Shown: positions 17,440-30,580 of the stretch, one piece after another | Numbering within the stretch: position 1 is the stretch's first letter | Layout of the letters: every line of letters begins with the position of its first letter | NCBI GenBank assembly: GCA_003056265.1 | Contig: NBVN01000004.1 | Coordinates: 90,001 to 122,000 of the forward strand | Direction of reading: 5' to 3' | Length of the DNA stretch: 32,000 nucleotides | From: Zestosphaera tikiterensis | GTDB taxonomy: Archaea > Thermoproteota > Thermoprotei_A > Sulfolobales > NBVN01 | The notes under the pieces: model-generated | The model's input: only the letters and a program-made list of their open reading frames with translations | Databases searched by the model: none | What the model was told of the DNA's origin: nothing | Position numbers and translations under genes: made by a program

Positions 17440-17620
17440 TGCCTGACCTCCTCCCCGCCCTAAAGGACGAGGGTTCTCGGTGTTGCTAAGGCGGGGAGGT
17501 TTGGGGCTACATCCGCTTCGTTCAGCCCCGGGCTAGGCCTCCAGCCCGTTACCCCTATCCCAATGGGACTCGGGGTTATAGATATACCTTTGATTAGGAT
17601 GTTGTATGCTGCTGCAATAT
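17440..17620 (-). ncRNA. Predicted omega-RNA (reRNA) scaffold overlapping the tnpB 3' end and right end
   Basis: This call rests on analogy with characterised TnpB systems. Here a GC-rich 3' coding end plus a 10-bp stem brackets the tnpB stop codon. The extent is a guess. Confidence 0.3.
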
Positions 17621-18734
17621 CAGCATTGAATACTTTGTTTAGCTTCGCGCACTTAAATAATCCTCTTGTTATCCTCCTTCCACATCCATTTTCATGTATT
17701 GGACATGATGATGAAGTATACATTTCATCAACAAATATGATGGATATTCCGTATTCTTCACTAACTTCATTTAATCTTCTCAACAGATATCCGTAGCTCC
17801 ACACCTGAACAGTGTTGAAGTTTCCGTTTTCTTGAGCTATGTTCTTCGGGTAGCCAACGTAAATTACTGAAATTCTACTCTCGTAGAGCCACTCAACGAG
17901 CTTCCTAACCTGCGCGTTTATGAAGCTCTTTACCTCCCTACGCCACTTACTATACATTAGCCTAAGCTTACGTGAAGACTTAATACCATATTTATTGATA
18001 ACGCTTTGATACTTGGCGATCCCCACCCTCCAGTAGTGGGATATGGATTTTAGAGGTCTACCGTTGACGAGTAACGACACCCCATTCTCAACGTATACTG
18101 CGAATAAGTTATTCACGCCGATATCCACTCCAGCCTTCAAATCGCCTTTGGGCGTTTGTGGTACCTTCCCCCACACACCTCTAACAGCTTTCTCATAAAC
18201 TTCGAAGGATATGTATGCGTACCACCTTCTTTCATCTGGGTCGTAGTGTATTTCAAGCCTGCCCTGCCTGCCCTTCAAGTGGACTAATCCTTTGTACTCT
18301 ACTTCTATTCTTCCTATGACTCCTAATCCTTTCAAGATGATTTTATTTTCTTCAATTCTGTATTGGTCGTTTCTCAGCACAACTCATAACTCTCTTGCTT
18401 TTCCCTTCTTCTTGTATCCGGGTGGGTTGACCTTCGTTATGTATGGCGGTAACTTTCCCTCTTTCTTAGCTTTCAGCATTTCGAAGAAGGATTTCCATGC
18501 CTCACCATTCTTATTAAGTATTTGTTGAACTGTTGCTGAACCTATTAACGCCTTATACTTCTCATAGAACTCTTTGTATGTACCCTTTAGATCAACTCCC
18601 TTACTCGCGAAGAACTGCCTCCTCCTAACGTAGTTTACTTCATTCCATAGCTTGGATGTTAAGCTACATAGGGCCTTCAACCTCACTTCAGATTCATTAT
18701 CTAGTACTAGTCTAACGACACTAACCCTCCTCAT
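17460..18734 (-). pseudogene. tnpB: tnpB (RNA-guided RuvC nuclease, IS605 OrfB type) interrupted by one in-frame TGA
   Basis: ORFs 18384-18734 and 17460-18380 are in the same frame. They are separated only by TGA (18386-18384) plus two codons. The RuvC residues are present (GVDIGVNN, FVDEMYTSSSCP, NADIAAAYNI) and the Zn-finger is partly degenerate. Confidence 0.8.
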
Positions 18735-19238: not shown

Positions 19239-19904
19239 GTAACAAACGTAACAAACTTCTCTAAGGTTGTTCTTGGCTATGCTTATAGAAGAGCTATGAT
19301 ACAGCGTAGGTGGAGCAAAACTTACGGAGTTGTTGGTAATAGAATGCTTGAAGTAGCTCTAAGGAAGCTTAGGGAGGGGAGAGTTAAAACCGACTTAAAA
19401 CGAAAGCTAGCTAAAACCGTTGTAGAGATTGTTAAGGACGGTGCAGTCATACTTGAGGACTTACCTAAGGAGTTCCAAGATAGGGTTATCGAAAAGAATG
19501 GTGTGAAGGGCTTAGACGCGCATAGGCTAAAGCAGTCCAGCATGCGTAGAGTGCAGAAGCTGATAATTGAAAAGCTCTCTGAGCAATGCGTACCATACGT
19601 TCTGGTTAACCCAGCCCACACCTCTTCAGTTTGCCCGAGATGCAACTCTAAACTCGTTCCTGTGACGGGCAATGCCCAGAGGAACGGGTGGAAACCAAGG
19701 ATAATGAAGTGCCCGAACTGCGGATTCATGCATGATAGAGATGTTATTGGAGCAGTCAACATAGTTAGGAAATATCTCCTAGATATGAGCCCTGTGCCGT
19801 TGGGCTCGAAGGGTGTCCATGACCTCCATGTGGAGTGGTCCGTGACCACCGTGAACCATGGAGAAGAGGCACAACCCATCCTAGCAAGACCTACAGTGAC
19901 CTAG
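19239..19904 (+). pseudogene. tnpB: 5'-truncated tnpB remnant (C-terminal RuvC-II/Zn-finger/RuvC-III half only)
   Basis: ORF 19296-19904 contains ILEDLPKEF, NPAHTSSVCPRCNSKL...CPNCGFMHDRDVIGAVNI. The reading frame stays open upstream to the IS junction at 19239. The N-terminal half with RuvC-I is absent. Confidence 0.75.
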
Positions 19905-20707: not shown

Positions 20708-21868
20708 TTGTGGTTTGTGAGTGCTGGGGCTTACTTAGCTTTGCTTTCCTTTATGGATTTAAGCATGTATTTATACATAGCTTACACACTAGGAGTTGAC
20801 CCCTTAACCTTAGGTGTAGCAAGCGCTTTATGGAGTGCTTCATTTATCTTTTCTAACGCTATATTCAATCACTTAGTTGATAAAGGATCTACGAAACTAG
20901 CTTCATTGATATCAGGTTCCTCTCTGATTGTTTCCTCAATTGTTTTGTTTAATTCAAATAACGTAGTATTATGTGTAGTTATGTACATGCTTCATGCTTT
21001 AGCTACGGCGTCTGGGAGGCTGGCGTCAAACGTTGCTTTACTTGAGTTTAGCGACAGTGACGATTGGAGTTTTCTAAACTCTTTAATGAATTTCCTAACC
21101 ACGTTTATAAGAGGTTTACTGCTAGTGTTTTTCTCACTAGGATTTCTCACACTTAACATATTGTACGTCACCGTCATTGCCTTAACCACGCTTTACGTTA
21201 TCACGCTACCTAACGTATGGGTTTCTATAGAAAGATCCGTTTTTTCAATGTCGAAACAGTTGGAGGCCTTAAGTAAGCATGTTAGGGTTGTTACAGCACT
21301 TACTTACTTAGTGGAAAGACCCTACACAGCTGCTGAGGCTTTCGAAAGTTTATGGAGGTCTAGTAAGGAGTTCTCACCTGTTAAACCTTTGCTAAGCGTG
21401 TTTTTACTAGTTACGGGATCCGATACTCTTATGGCTATGTTGCCGTTAATTTTAAGATCTAAAATAGCTGCAAGCGATACATATATGGTTTACGGTATCG
21501 CATCTTTAATAGCTGCGGTAGTTCTAATAGCGGTTTCTACATGTAGAGGTTCTAAGGGAATGGCCATTTTAGCTGTATCCGCCAGGATTTTAGTTTTCCC
21601 CACCCTACTCTTACTAGACAACTTGACATTTCTAGTTACGTTCTTAGTTCTTGCTAACGTCTTTTACAATATCTACGTTACTAGCGTATATTACTTATAC
21701 GTTAAAGCAACTTCAGGGTATAAGCTCTCACTATATAACATGTCTTTAGAAGCGGGTTCCATCTTAGGATCTTTAATTGGGGGGTACGTAACGTTCAACT
21801 ACGGTTATAACTATACCTTAATAGCGTCCATTATAGGGCATATAGCTTCAGCTATAGTACTGATTTAA
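20708..21868 (+). CDS. Polytopic membrane transporter, MFS-like
   Basis: The 386-aa protein is hydrophobic throughout, with about 10-12 predicted TM segments by eye. Confidence 0.5.
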   Translation: MWFVSAGAYLALLSFMDLSMYLYIAYTLGVDPLTLGVASALWSASFIFSNAIFNHLVDKGSTKLASLISGSSLIVSSIVLFNSNNVVLCVVMYMLHALATASGRLASNVALLEFSDSDDWSFLNSLMNFLTTFIRGLLLVFFSLGFLTLNILYVTVIALTTLYVITLPNVWVSIERSVFSMSKQLEALSKHVRVVTALTYLVERPYTAAEAFESLWRSSKEFSPVKPLLSVFLLVTGSDTLMAMLPLILRSKIAASDTYMVYGIASLIAAVVLIAVSTCRGSKGMAILAVSARILVFPTLLLLDNLTFLVTFLVLANVFYNIYVTSVYYLYVKATSGYKLSLYNMSLEAGSILGSLIGGYVTFNYGYNYTLIASIIGHIASAIVLI

Positions 21869-21980
21869 ATTGCTTAGATTTATCTTAAAGGTTGTTTCTA
21901 AGGTATTGAAACCCTAAGATATTGTGAATGAGTCTTAATTGCTTGAAACCTTATAATCTACTAAACTTATAAACGTATCG

Positions 21981-22064
21981 GTGACCTCGGGGTTCCGAGA
22001 TCCGTAGGGCTTTGAAGCTCTAGGCAACTAGAGCAGAGCTACTGCGGTGAGGGGCCCCGAGAGG
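21981..22064 (+). ncRNA. Kink-turn hairpin RNA, copy A (unassigned family); the transcript may extend to about 22128
   Basis: TATA-like CTTATAAT lies at 21950-21957, about 30 nt upstream. The basal helix is 21985-21995/22051-22063. The K-turn has a bulge CGA (21996-98), G.A/A.G pairs (21999-22000 with 22049-22050), a U.U pair (22001/22048) and then CCG/CGG. The region is GC-rich in AT-rich surroundings and homologous to copy B. Confidence 0.6.
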
Positions 22065-22193
22065 AAGCGTGATGAACCAGACCACTGAACTAAAAGCAAT
22101 TGAAAATATCAAGGAATACCGTGGTCTGAGGAACGCTGTTTGTTAAACACTTATTAATTAATGCGTTAATTAAAGTTTGTAGGTGAAGATTGA

Positions 22194-23363
22194 ATGGCTT
22201 TCAACTCCTTAAATCCTTTAGCAGAAGCTTTAAAGATTAAGGACTTAATCATTGGGTGGCGGCGTGAATTCCACGCATACCCTGAACTTGGTTTTGAGGA
22301 ATTCAGAACCTCTCAAATCGTCGAGGAAAACCTTAGGAGTTGGGGCTATAAAGTTAGGAGGGTTGGGACTGGGGTTATAGCTGACTTAAGCGGTGGGGAT
22401 GGTTTAACTATCGCTTTAAGGGCCGATATGGACGCCCTACCTATCCAGGAGGAGAATGACGTACCTTATAGATCTAAGGTCCCAGGTAAGATGCATGCTT
22501 GCGGGCATGACGCTCATGTAGCAATGCTTTTAGGCGCTGCTAAAATCATTGCTGAATTCTCGCATATACTTCCTAATAAGGTTAGGTTAATTTTCCAACC
22601 TGCTGAGGAAACCGTTTCAGGAGCTTTAAGGATGGTTGAGGGAGGTGCTGTTGATGGCGTTGACTTCATATTTGGTATTCACGTATGGGCTGACCTACCC
22701 AGCGGCGTTATCGGTTTAAAAGAAGGTGCTTTCTTAGCTGGGGCGGGCTCTTTCGATATTAGGATTGTAGGTAAAGGAGGTCATGGCGCGGCACCGCATG
22801 AGGCTATTGACCCCATACCTATAGCGGCTCAGGCAATATTAGCTTTTCAAACTATAGTGAGTAGGTTCTTAAATCCGCTGGAAAAAGGTGTCGTGAGTGT
22901 TTGCTCCGTTAAAGCGGGTGAAGCCCATAACGTCATACCTAACGACGTTGTTATGAAAGGCACTTATAGATTCTATAGCGATTCGGTAGCTAAGCTTATT
23001 GAGAGGAAAGTAGATGAGATTTTAAAAGGGTTAACTTCAGCTTACGGAGCTACTTACGAATTAAGGATGGAGAGAACGGCACTACCCGTAATTAACGATT
23101 CTAAAGCTATTTCATACGTTAAGAAAGTGGCTGAGGCTTTAAACGTTAAAACCTTTGAGATACCCGCCACTATGGCATCAGAGGATTTCTCAGAATACCT
23201 TCAGAGAGTTCCAGGTGCTTTTATAGCTTTAGGCGTTAAAAACGAAAGCAAGGGAATTATCTATCCACACCACCACCCTAAGTTCAACTTAGATGAGGAT
23301 GCGCTACCTATAGGAACAGCTTTAGAGGTGGGGCTAGTTTTTCATGATTATTCATCATATTAG
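22194..23363 (+). CDS. M20-family amidohydrolase (aminoacylase/carboxypeptidase type)
   Basis: Motifs seen are ELGFEEFRTS, LRADMDALP, MHACGHDAH and FQPAEE. A GGTGA Shine-Dalgarno-like motif precedes the ATG. Confidence 0.85.
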   Translation: MAFNSLNPLAEALKIKDLIIGWRREFHAYPELGFEEFRTSQIVEENLRSWGYKVRRVGTGVIADLSGGDGLTIALRADMDALPIQEENDVPYRSKVPGKMHACGHDAHVAMLLGAAKIIAEFSHILPNKVRLIFQPAEETVSGALRMVEGGAVDGVDFIFGIHVWADLPSGVIGLKEGAFLAGAGSFDIRIVGKGGHGAAPHEAIDPIPIAAQAILAFQTIVSRFLNPLEKGVVSVCSVKAGEAHNVIPNDVVMKGTYRFYSDSVAKLIERKVDEILKGLTSAYGATYELRMERTALPVINDSKAISYVKKVAEALNVKTFEIPATMASEDFSEYLQRVPGAFIALGVKNESKGIIYPHHHPKFNLDEDALPIGTALEVGLVFHDYSSY

Positions 23364-23442
23364 TTTCAGTTCTTTCATGGCTATCACATACAGTGATGTC
23401 GCGTGTCTAGGGCTTATAGGCTCAGCAACTTATGAATTTACT

Positions 23443-23497
23443 TGATGACTTCGGGTTTCCGAGATCCGTGGCTGAACCGCGGTGAGGGGGCTCGAAG
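23443..23497 (+). ncRNA. Kink-turn hairpin RNA, copy B (unassigned family); the 3' extent is unknown
   Basis: TATA-like CTTATAGG lies at 23413-23420, 30 nt upstream. The basal helix is 23449-23459/23486-23497. The K-turn has a bulge CGA (23460-62), GA (23463-64) with GA (23484-85), and a U.U pair (23465/23483). The apical stem is 23466-71/23477-82 with loop CUGAA. Confidence 0.6.
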
Positions 23498-23669
23498 AGA
23501 CCGTAAGGAATCCGAGGGTGGTGGGGAAAAAGAAAAATAAAACCACTCCCCGATGGATGGTTAGTCTTCAGCAATTACCTTCGGTAAATCCGTTGATTTA
23601 ACGTTAACGTAGTTGATTGATTTTAAACTTACGAAACCAGCTTATATGCGTGGATGAATTAGTGGGAAG

Positions 23670-24362
23670 GTGAGTACTGTGGGGAAGGTTTTAGAACTTC
23701 TTTCGAGGAGGAAACCCCTTCTTCAAGTAGCTTTAGATTTCACTAGGCTGGAGGAGGCTGCACGTTTAGTTAATTCACTAAGTGGGTTGGACGTAGATAT
23801 CTATGAAGTTGGAACGCCGTTAATAAAAAGTGAAGGTGTTAAAGCTGTGGGCGTCATTAAAAGTTTAGTTCCCGCTGCTTCAGCTGTTTACGCAGATATG
23901 AAAATATGCGATGTAGGTTCTTTAGAGGTTTCTCTAGCTCATGAGGCTGGAGCTGATGCTGTAAGCGTTATAGGTGCGACGGATAATGCCGTTATAGAGT
24001 CGGCGTTTAATGAAGCGTTAAAAAGAAACGTTGACTTAGTAGTTGACTTAATAGGTGTGAGGGAAATCATAGCTAGAATTGAAGAGTTAAGTAAGGGTTT
24101 AGGGATTAAAGTCTTTGAAATACATATCGGTATAGACGCTCAGAGAAAGGGCTTGGGGATAGCCTCCGTTAAAGACTTAATAGCAGAAGTAAAGAGGCGA
24201 TACCCGCAAATAATCTTAGCCGTAGCTGGCGGCATTAAGAAAGACGACGTAAAAATCCTTAAGCAGTTAGGCGTTGATATAGTGATTGTAGGGGGTTATA
24301 TCACGAGATCTTCAGATCCTCGGAAAGCTGCTGAGGAAATAATAGCTGAATTACGTAAATAG
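23670..24362 (+). CDS. 3-hexulose-6-phosphate synthase / KGPDC-like enzyme (OMP-decarboxylase superfamily)
   Basis: Motifs seen are LQVALDF, EVGTPLIKSEG, YADMKICDVG, HIGIDAQ, AVAGGI and VIVGGYITRSSDP. Confidence 0.7.
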   Translation: MSTVGKVLELLSRRKPLLQVALDFTRLEEAARLVNSLSGLDVDIYEVGTPLIKSEGVKAVGVIKSLVPAASAVYADMKICDVGSLEVSLAHEAGADAVSVIGATDNAVIESAFNEALKRNVDLVVDLIGVREIIARIEELSKGLGIKVFEIHIGIDAQRKGLGIASVKDLIAEVKRRYPQIILAVAGGIKKDDVKILKQLGVDIVIVGGYITRSSDPRKAAEEIIAELRK

Positions 24363-26598: not shown

Positions 26599-27358
26599 TA
26601 GATCCAGTGAGGATATGCTCGACCACCATATAAGTATAGGTTTTAAGTTAAAAACTATGTAGTTCAGCCAAAAACTTTACGCGTTAGTCTTGAACTTAAA
26701 TTTTTAAGCCATGGTCTATAAGTTAACGACGTTTAAGACATGATAGATCTAGAAAACTACCATGTTGAAGTTAATGAACGAAGAGCCTGAGGGCGTCGCT
26801 ATCATAGTTAGCTCGACCCAAGCATATTTATAGCTGGGTATTTTTGACTCTATAGGTAATAAACTAGGGTCGGATTTTAACGGTTAAGCAGCTTGTGAAC
26901 TCGTGGTTGCTGTTAAAAACGAAAGAAGCCCATGGCATACCACTCCCGTCCACGTTTTCTGGTTTCTGTAGATAGTTCATCATAGTTTCACGGTAGCTCA
27001 AAACATCAAGAAACCTTAAAAGACCTTCAATAAGAAAACTACTACCAGCCCTGCCGTGTGGTGGGCAATAACGTTTTCCATGGTTATTCCTATTGGCTTC
27101 AGTCCTTTTATTGCTATGATGTATGTTGATGTTGTGTAACCAAGACTTATAGCTACCTTGAAGTTCCTGAGGGAACAACACTCCCGTAGACGGCCCCGAA
27201 GAGATCGTGCTGAATCCAAGTAAAGAAGACGATAAATTAAATGAACCACTCTCGGTCTAACGGCAAAGACAATAGCGGATGCTCCATAGATGAGTTACGG
27301 GTGGGGACAAATCAGAAGCTTTATTAAGGTTTCTTTAAAATAATTTCGGTGAAATCTC

Positions 27359-30505: not shown

Positions 30506-30580
30506 CGGGCCCGCCGGGATTTGAACCCGGGATCTCCGGCTCCGCAGGCCGGCGCCTTATCCTGGCTAGGCCACGGGCCC
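30506..30580 (-). tRNA. tRNA-Arg (anticodon GCG), no intron, CCA not encoded
   Basis: The hand-folded cloverleaf is acceptor GGGCCCG/CGGGCCC, D arm GCCU-AGCCAGGAUA-AGGC, anticodon arm CCGGC-CUGCGGA-GCCGG, variable AGAUC, T arm CCGGG-UUCAAAU-CCCGG, discriminator G. Total length is 75 nt. Confidence 0.93.

Follow-up and report, generated by a model that had tools for sequence, protein, structure and literature searches.

The window analysed here is a stretch of 32,000 nucleotides (nt) from the archaeon Zestosphaera tikiterensis (contig NBVN01000004.1, positions 90,001 to 122,000 of the forward strand), in which two paralogous hairpin RNAs, copies A and B, had been predicted from the sequence. 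Copy B, which is the subject of this account, is part of a small mobile element. Its RNA is constrained in structure, travels with and outlives the gene for a TnpB/Cas12f-like protein, and has a scaffold that ends at the element boundary. The parts of the locus, the RNA family to which it belongs and the readings of its role are discussed below.

Copy B and its paralogues in the window

Copy B is made up of the following parts.

23343..23396, + strand: left-end block of the element, TTTCAGTTCTTTCATGGCTATCACATACAG with neighbouring bases, matching the family consensus GGCTGTTTCGGTTTTCATGATTATTTGTAG
23413..23420, + strand: TATA box CTTATAGG, about 30 nt upstream of the RNA 5' end
23427..23433, + strand: AACTTAT motif between the TATA box and the RNA start, kept in part of the family
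23444..23561, + strand: RNA scaffold in its short form, with leader GAUGAC, hairpin 1, linker AGA and hairpin 2
23449..23497, + strand: hairpin 1, with a 12-bp basal stem, the kink-turn (K-turn)-like loop Kt1, a 6-bp stem and the loop CUGAA
23500..23561, + strand: hairpin 2, with an ACC/GGU stem, a degenerate GA loop, a long imperfect stem and an A-rich 18-nt loop

Two further copies are present on the same strand.

21890..21935, + strand: left-end block of copy A (GGTTGTTTCTAAGGTATTGAAACC...), shared with the element family
21951..21958, + strand: TATA box of copy A (CTTATAAT)
21980..22137, + strand: RNA scaffold of copy A in its long form, with hairpin 1 at 21985-22062 and hairpin 2 at 22065-22137
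27094..27268, + strand: copy C, a third, degenerate copy, which keeps the left-end block, the TATA box and a hairpin-2-like part and has mostly lost hairpin 1

The TATA core, the AACTTAT spacer motif and the distance of about 30 nt to the RNA start had all been described for copy B, and all of them are found there. The RNA is predicted to begin at GAUGAC (23444), an end that is placed within about 6 nt. The 3' end given for it (23561) is the element boundary (...GGAUGG), and the placement of the left boundary is uncertain by about ±15 nt.

In copy B, the bulged strand of Kt1 reads C-CGA-GA-U (23459-23465) and the non-bulged strand U-GA (23483-23485). The K-turn cores TTCCGAGATCCG and GCGGTGAGGGG are indeed identical in A and B; each occurs exactly twice in the window, in these two copies and nowhere else, and dinucleotide shuffles gave mismatched matches only. 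Both compensatory changes reported for the basal helix are correct, namely C21986-G22061 of A to U23450-A23496 of B and G21990-C22057 to G23454.U23492, and a further one, G21992-C22055 to U23456.G23490, can be added to them. Other parts of the original prediction needed correction. Hairpin 1 of copy B, thought to be 40 nt shorter than that of copy A, is in fact 29 nt shorter (49 vs 78 nt). The single bulged G exists in the K-turn register but is absent from the minimum-free-energy fold, in which UUCC pairs with GGGG. Hairpin 1 itself stands, but the RNA does not stop there: three linker nucleotides further on comes a second hairpin (B 23500-23561; A 22065-22137), whose GA loop is K-turn-like. 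A covariance model of both hairpins matches the two copies end to end, at 23444-23563 in B (80.3 bits, E=5e-20) and at 21980-22139 in A (114 bits, E=5.5e-29). It finds only these two in the window, with copy C scoring merely 5.3 bits (27151-27266). The hairpins also fold better than shuffled sequence (z = -6.4 for copy A and -2.8 for copy B).

Hairpin 1 of copy A contains, besides Kt1, another K-turn-like loop as well as a GNRA tetraloop (GCAA), and in hairpin 2 of the same copy there is a UGAUGA/AGGA K-turn-like loop. The GA loop in hairpin 2 of copy B is degenerate, with UAAGGA on one strand and no counterpart opposite. In comparison with locus L134, its closest intact relative, this hairpin has two broken pairs and, with UGG for UGA, lacks the crucial A of the GA motif. 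Copy B is thus partly decayed in hairpin 2, and its function may be weak. Searches against Rfam gave no match in 21500-24000, either at the gathering threshold or at E<=10.

An RNA family of hot-spring Thermoprotei

Pattern scans with a fixed Kt1 core recovered five archaeal copies in genome bins and at least 120 metagenome loci. The gap range of the genome-contig scan excluded long forms, and the distribution in cultured genomes is under-sampled. About two thirds of the listed metagenome loci are true members, from hot-spring samples, and the rest are GC-rich chance matches inside genes. A scan with a covariance model, as had been suggested for copies A and B, recovered a large family: 92 matches to the model (R1) at E<=1e-3 from 85 sources. 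The hosts are hot-spring Thermoprotei, and the family has no entry in Rfam. The scan of viral contigs returned GC-rich chance matches only, the plasmid and phage collections gave no match, and searching full-text literature with the core sequence strings brought up nothing of relevance.

The homologues, 61 to 92 of them depending on the alignment, keep the pairing through many double changes, as would be expected of a selected structure. In a MAFFT alignment of 61 sequences, made without structure fitting, 89.0% of the cells are paired against 79.4% in shuffles, and 237 cells show double changes against 88 expected, values that none of 500 shuffles reached (0/500). Slid controls of the same alignment had at most 58% of cells paired. 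When the 92 sequences are aligned by fitting to the covariance model R1, 91.5% of the cells are paired and 30 of the 39 pairs show double changes. Three consecutive U.G pairs are invariant, and on the other strand they become A.C mismatches; the fold is therefore specific to the transcribed strand.

A TATA box (TTTATAAA or CTTATAA) stands at the same spacing, about 30 nt upstream of the RNA, in almost all members. The RNA itself, 110-170 nt in total, consists of a leader (GGUGAC or GGUUAC), hairpin 1 with Kt1, a linker of 3-4 nt and hairpin 2. In the long form, the apical arm of hairpin 1 has a second K-turn-like loop (Kt2), with GA/GA in about 48 of 54 sequences, and ends in a GNRA tetraloop in every one (54/54). 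Hairpin 2 opens with either a UGAUGA/xGA K-turn-like loop or a symmetric GAGA/GAGA loop, and its apical loop is A-rich and variable; in many members it also has another K-turn-like loop, in reversed orientation. A short-form RNA holds one to two K-turn-type GA motifs, and a long-form RNA as many as four.

At the sequence level, Kt1 has the stem, the 3-nt bulge and the tandem G.A/A.G pairs of a K-turn, its bulged strand being ..UUC-CGA-GA-U-CCG and its non-bulged strand CGG-U-GA-GGG. Since the Kt1 core was fixed in the scans, its conservation has to be read from copies recovered in another way. In copies identified by means of the protein or the covariance model, C-(G/A)A-GA-N ... U-GA-G is preserved, with position 3b varying among U, G, C and A; the GA/GA of Kt1 is present without exception, also in the copies recovered without the pattern.

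Three details of hairpin 2 were also observed. Its base motif (columns 93-100 and 159-166 of alignment A3) is a true K-turn (UGAUGA / UGA) in one subfamily vs symmetric GAGA/GAGA in the other, where the 3' strand is longer by three bases; in all else the two subfamilies are homologous. Midway along the stem, columns 105 and 154 of the same alignment hold an A.C mismatch in 28 of 61 sequences, alternating with A-U, which may be a protonated A+.C wobble or a recognition feature. Finally, two solo paralogues of the Desulfurococcales bin KUA_Bin17 (L002 and L003) are near-identical from the left end through hairpin 1 and differ in the apical loop of hairpin 2, of about 30 nt. This loop is thus the fastest-evolving internal part of the RNA.

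The mobile element and its gene-less derivatives

The full-length element is about 1.45 kb long. It consists, in order, of a left end of about 40 nt (GGCTGTTTCGG...), a gene of 363 amino acids running leftwards, a palindromic TATA box and the 110-170-nt RNA running rightwards. After the stop codon of this nuclease-like gene come about 40 nt ending in ...AAACCGAAACAGCC, and there the similarity between loci ends. On the RNA strand, the same block (GGCTGTTTCGGTTTTCATGATTATTTGTAG...) is found 60-115 nt upstream of the RNA in copies without the gene, hereafter solos, where the final few codons of the missing gene often come next. The solos are therefore internal-deletion derivatives, similar to miniature inverted-repeat transposable elements (MITEs).

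The left block is present in copies A, B and C. That of copy B is the one seen in the other solos and, directly after the nuclease stop codon, in full-length elements; a tblastn search finds in it a remnant of the nuclease C-terminus (the last codons, on the opposite strand) at 23358-23408(-). Thus, the window copies, each of about 230-250 bp, are gene-less MITE-like solos of the 1.45-kb element that have kept its left end, promoter and RNA. Solos outnumber full copies by about 3:1.

At the right boundary, the similarity between paralogues stops directly after the hairpin-2 stem, at ...ACGG or ...ACGC. The base after it varies and is never compensated (A.C in 19 of 61), and 72 different right flanks occur among 87 copies. 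The other end of the element has no fold comparable to the RNA end. The original prediction had named terminal inverted repeats or target duplications as marks of a mobile element. Neither was found: there are no clear terminal inverted repeats, the two ends being alike in about 7 of 9 nt (CTGTTTC vs CCGTTTC on the reverse complement), and no target-site duplication is visible at 42 junctions. In substance the element is nevertheless mobile, as judged by its internal deletion derivatives, sharp shared boundaries and many sites. The proposed contrast between a selected RNA and a MITE accordingly fails, since both are true. The RNA is selected, strand-specific and served by its own archaeal promoter. 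Like MITEs and palindrome-associated transposable elements, the window copies are short, internally deleted, keep both ends of the parent, outnumber the full copies and decay (copy C); they differ in holding a structurally constrained RNA gene with a promoter and in having no clear inverted repeats and no target-site duplication.

Some junctions are informative in themselves. At the right junctions of L060/L084/L093 and L074, elements lie head to tail, the RNA right end abutting or overlapping the next left-end block (GGCTGTATCC..., GCTGTTTCGG...), which hints at insertion beside existing copies. In Vulcanisaeta sp. JCM 14467 (L131, 772-2949), a full-length element separates two fragments of an Amidohydro_3 gene. 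This amidohydrolase gene lacks about 270 codons, so the insertion was accompanied by a deletion and is unusable for defining a target duplication.

Several candidate features were set aside. An upstream 'ATGAAAACCGAAACAGCC' that could be taken for a gene start is the left end of the element, as the open reading frames (ORFs) diverge directly after it. A second left end suggested by 'GGGGCTAGTTTTT' at 23329 is native coding sequence of the neighbouring M20 gene. An IS607-like 'GG crossover at both ends' fits the ...ACGG subfamily and not the ...ACGC subfamily, which includes copy A.

The partner protein

When the ORFs around all RNA copies were clustered, one protein of 362-376 amino acids recurred directly upstream, on the opposite strand. 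Its start codon lies about 50 nt from the RNA 5' end, so that the two genes are divergent, and a single palindromic TATA box (TTTATAAA), about 25 nt from the start of each, stands between them. The 92 RNA copies comprise 15 with the complete gene, 5 with a partial one, 44 with at least 1250 nt of upstream flank and no gene, and 28 with too little flank. Look-ups anchored on the protein, and therefore independent of the RNA, were made with six proteins, from Vulcanisaeta, Desulfurococcus, Ignisphaera, a Desulfurococcales bin and two metagenome lineages. All six loci carry the RNA, in the same place and orientation.

The protein has the recent Pfam label SSO2105_N (PF27229) and is mostly annotated as 'hypothetical'. 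The residues D209, E273 and D346, a D-E-D triad, are invariant in 25 sequences, and a TnpB signature can be read in GVDVNxDRINLAI, ENP, F..S.IE.IA.KAPLYGI.V.YV.P.GTT and DRHTASAY. The C4 zinc finger between RuvC-II and RuvC-III is absent, there being no CxxC pairs in the protein sequence. Curated models score below their thresholds: PF07282 (TNB) reaches 15.7 bits vs a cut-off of 26.3, TIGR01766 22.5 vs 32 and NF040570 (guided_TnpB) 21.4 vs 100. A profile search against the PDB sequences found nothing for the protein.

The AlphaFold2 model (predicted local distance difference test score 75) places a strand, a helical bundle, a beta-barrel and the RuvC domain in this order. Its best Foldseek match is Cas12f (E=2.7e-10, TM about 0.5), at a sequence identity of 9-13%, and other structural matches are Cas12k, Cas12g and Fanzor2. 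By its predicted structure, then, the protein is a zinc-finger-less, miniature TnpB/Cas12f-like RuvC nuclease with a WED-REC-RuvC-type fold. The family is narrow: among 1.84 billion representative proteins it forms only 258 clusters (50% identity), and many of these are fragments. Many matches lie on contigs of 1.3-2 kb, as is typical of repeats that break assemblies. A HemN-like radical-SAM neighbour proved to be an artefact of one fused ORF in L061.

A proposed guide scaffold for the nuclease

With slightly better than even confidence, we take the RNA to be the guide-RNA scaffold of the SSO2105-like nuclease, a counterpart of the omega RNA or right-end element RNA (reRNA) of TnpB, which in the window persists in gene-less copies of the element. 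Four observations lead to this reading: the partner protein folds like RNA-guided nucleases, the scaffold end is the transposon end, as in omega RNAs, the solos retain promoter and RNA, and the 3' end of the nuclease gene shows no embedded, conserved RNA. On the last point, there was no sign of a canonical omega RNA inside the gene, where synonymous-site identity is flat (0.45-0.55) with no 3' excess.

In the mechanism that is proposed, transcription from the element's own promoter would run past the boundary into the flank. Because it would cross the boundary, the 3' tail of the RNA would be a copy of flanking DNA and could serve as a guide. The K-turn-type GA motifs would be bound and kinked by L7Ae in the archaeal cell, and additional guides would be provided in trans by the solos. 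It is through guides copied from the flank that TnpB elements target the empty sites of their own. Archaeal K-turns bind L7Ae, and those with U.U at 3b.3n, which is of the box C/D type, need the protein to fold. The window copies have U.U at 3b.3n, and by analogy their Kt motifs are probably bound by L7Ae.

The resemblance to the omega RNA/reRNA of TnpB (IS200/IS605 and IS607; ISDra2, for example) is considerable. In both, a structured scaffold of about 100-170 nt lies in the same small element as a RuvC nuclease of about 360-400 amino acids, the scaffold ends at the element boundary so that the flank could continue the transcript, and gene-less derivatives keep the RNA. The differences are equally plain. 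The RNA here is upstream of the gene and divergent from it, with its own TATA promoter and no overlap with the gene 3' end; the scaffold consists of two independent hairpins with one to four K-turn-type loops and a GNRA loop; and the protein lacks the zinc finger and scores below threshold with curated TnpB models. A guide function is proposed for the RNA by analogy. The closest precedent is the RAGATH-18 reRNA of bacterial IS607 TnpB, in which a possible K-turn has been reported (PMC11061315).

Cas12f (type V-F) with its single guide RNA provides the protein's best structural match and is likewise of miniature size. It differs in that the present system has no CRISPR array, no pair of trans-activating and CRISPR RNAs (tracrRNA/crRNA), a transposon context and 9-13% identity. 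On the RNA side, the C-stem, 3-nt bulge and tandem G.A/A.G are shared with the L7Ae-binding K-turn RNAs of archaea, which include the C/D and H/ACA small RNAs (sRNAs), RNase P, the signal recognition particle, the l7ae mRNA leader and sR666. The host lineage is also one where L7Ae binds such motifs, and box C/D too has U.U at 3b.3n. Unlike these RNAs, the family has no C/D or H/ACA architecture and no identified complementarity between guide and target, and it is multi-copy, mobile and linked to a nuclease. The sR666 of S. islandicus is a K-turn hairpin without known function that binds L7Ae and Cbf5-Nop10 (PMC11077068). Compared by description only, it may be related to the element RNA.

Several points weigh against a guide role. 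The position of the RNA, upstream of the gene and divergent from it, is unlike that in every characterised TnpB, where the RNA has the orientation of the gene and overlaps or follows its 3' end. The synonymous-site test covers 12 genes only, and the RNA 5' end, the read-through into the flank and any processing are predictions. At 42 unique sites, the left flank shows a purine bias only (G in 32 and A in 9 at position -1), with no clear transposon-associated motif (TAM), and no transposase gene was seen in the elements. Directly 3' of the copy A scaffold is a T-rich, terminator-like stretch, TGTTTGTT, which would leave no guide. Moreover, in most long-form members the third motif is the symmetric GAGA/GAGA and not a true K-turn.

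A more specific form of the guide reading, which is possible though we rather doubt it, would make this a three-component system. In it, the 363-amino-acid nuclease would work with a separately transcribed K-turn guide RNA and with L7Ae as a required architectural subunit, and the solos A and B would be extra guide genes carrying their own flank.

Alternative explanations

The main alternative is a regulatory role within the element in which the RNA guides nothing. It would be an L7Ae-binding regulator that controls expression of the divergent nuclease gene, titrates L7Ae or takes part in transposition as a cofactor or a template. With a palindromic TATA box in common and about 50 nt between the divergent genes, the two transcripts are coupled, and L7Ae is known to regulate mRNAs through K-turns in Sulfolobus (PMC5539422). 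The lack of a clear TAM and the T run after copy A would suit such a role as well. Yet solos, in which the gene to be regulated is absent, still keep the fold by compensatory changes and are some three times as common as full copies, and this is hard to reconcile with regulation in cis. Also against it are the scaffold's end exactly at the element boundary, like that of TnpB guide scaffolds, and a partner that folds like RNA-guided nucleases. We regard this role as improbable, although it is the best placed of the alternatives.

Less probable still is that the fold acts mainly as single-stranded DNA, as the end of a transposon mobilised by an IS200/IS605-like transposase in trans, its transcription being incidental. 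The fold does sit at the very end of a mobile element, DNA hairpins tolerate G.T wobbles, and in the absence of an element-encoded transposase, mobilisation in trans through end structures is plausible. What speaks against it is that the TATA box stays at its fixed distance of about 30 nt even in solos and that the conserved features, namely the tandem G.A K-turn loops and the invariant GNRA tetraloop of the long forms, are of RNA type. The subterminal hairpins of IS200/IS605 are about 20 nt long, against 110-170 nt here, and a comparable fold is lacking at the other end. As an additional role, a function as transposon end at the DNA level is possible.

It is very unlikely that the copies are free-standing K-turn sRNAs or cis-acting leaders of metabolic genes, unrelated to mobile DNA. 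The idea of a cis-regulatory role arose from the position of A and B, which do lie upstream of, and on the same strand as, an M20 gene (22194) and an OMPdecase/HUMPS-family gene (23670), and an outward-facing promoter could in principle drive neighbouring genes. Across the family, however, the genes that follow the RNA belong to no recurrent family, and their orientation is random: 26 of the nearest downstream neighbours share the strand of the RNA and 27 have the opposite one. The diversity of right flanks, the ends shared with full-length nuclease elements and the third, decayed copy in the window argue in the same direction.

A modification guide of box C/D-like or atypical H/ACA-like type that uses L7Ae is scarcely credible and was rejected on architecture, for although the K-turn loops resemble C/D boxes (xGAGAU/UGA, and UGAUGA in hairpin 2 of copy A) and sR666 offers a parallel (PMC11077068), the hairpins are sequential rather than nested C/D and C'/D', both a pseudouridylation pocket (the internal loop measures 5x3 nt) and a conserved ACA box are lacking, even E<=10 brings no Rfam match, the unpaired segments are not conserved in the way of guides, and the RNA is linked to a nuclease-like gene.

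Surroundings of the copies in the window

The M20 amidohydrolase gene (22194-23363, +) lies between two directly oriented solos, 21890-22137 and 23343-23561. Its product is 100% identical to the entry of the Desulfurococcales archaeon Z. tikiterensis, and its closest relatives after that are Thermococcus proteins (69% identity), which suggests that the gene was acquired horizontally. Copy B is inserted at the very end of this gene. The M20 homology stops at about 23342, just before the left block, and the ORF extends 6 codons beyond that point. An M20 peptidase gene beside the Ignisphaera element (L136) is unrelated to that of the window, and its presence is a coincidence.

The OMPdecase/HUMPS-family gene starts at 23670, downstream of copy B and on the same strand. 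A weak, box C/D-like match to Rfam sR30 at 23650-23697 (+), with 13.9 bits and E=2.5, is far under the gathering score; it overlaps the start of this ORF and is probably due to chance.

Two fragments of classical zinc-finger TnpB genes, with OrfB_IS605 / Cas12f1-like TNB domains, are present at 17460-18380 (-) and 19296-19904 (+). They belong to another family than the SSO2105-like protein, and the region is rich in insertion-sequence debris. In composition, the tRNA-Arg (GCG) at 30506-30580 (-) has 75% G+C in a genome of 41% G+C, the usual contrast in hyperthermophiles. Against this genome the element RNA, at 53-54%, stands out too.

Significance

The family accounts for widespread GC-rich 'orphan' structured RNAs of hot-spring Thermoprotei that are not covered by Rfam. 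It also holds a lesson for annotation: a pair of 'sRNA paralogues' may show covariation and still be the cargo of a transposon. No description of such a system came up in full-text searches that combined TnpB with L7Ae, K-turn or kink-turn. What is most likely new here is a TnpB-type element with an unusual, K-turn-based and separately transcribed RNA, a scaffold type so far undescribed. The element RNA is, in addition, a candidate identity for the K-turn RNAs without known function that were pulled down with L7Ae in Sulfolobales.

If the RNA is indeed a guide scaffold, the TnpB/Cas12 world would gain a very divergent and very small archaeal branch. With it would come a new locus layout, in which a divergent guide gene shares a bidirectional promoter with the nuclease gene, and a new build of scaffold, whose K-turns are folded by L7Ae, a universal archaeal protein. 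Should the three-component form hold as well, this would be the first Cas12/TnpB-type guide scaffold to borrow the archaeal L7Ae/K-turn module, and it would offer a compact hyperthermophilic platform for editing, with independent expression of guide and nuclease.

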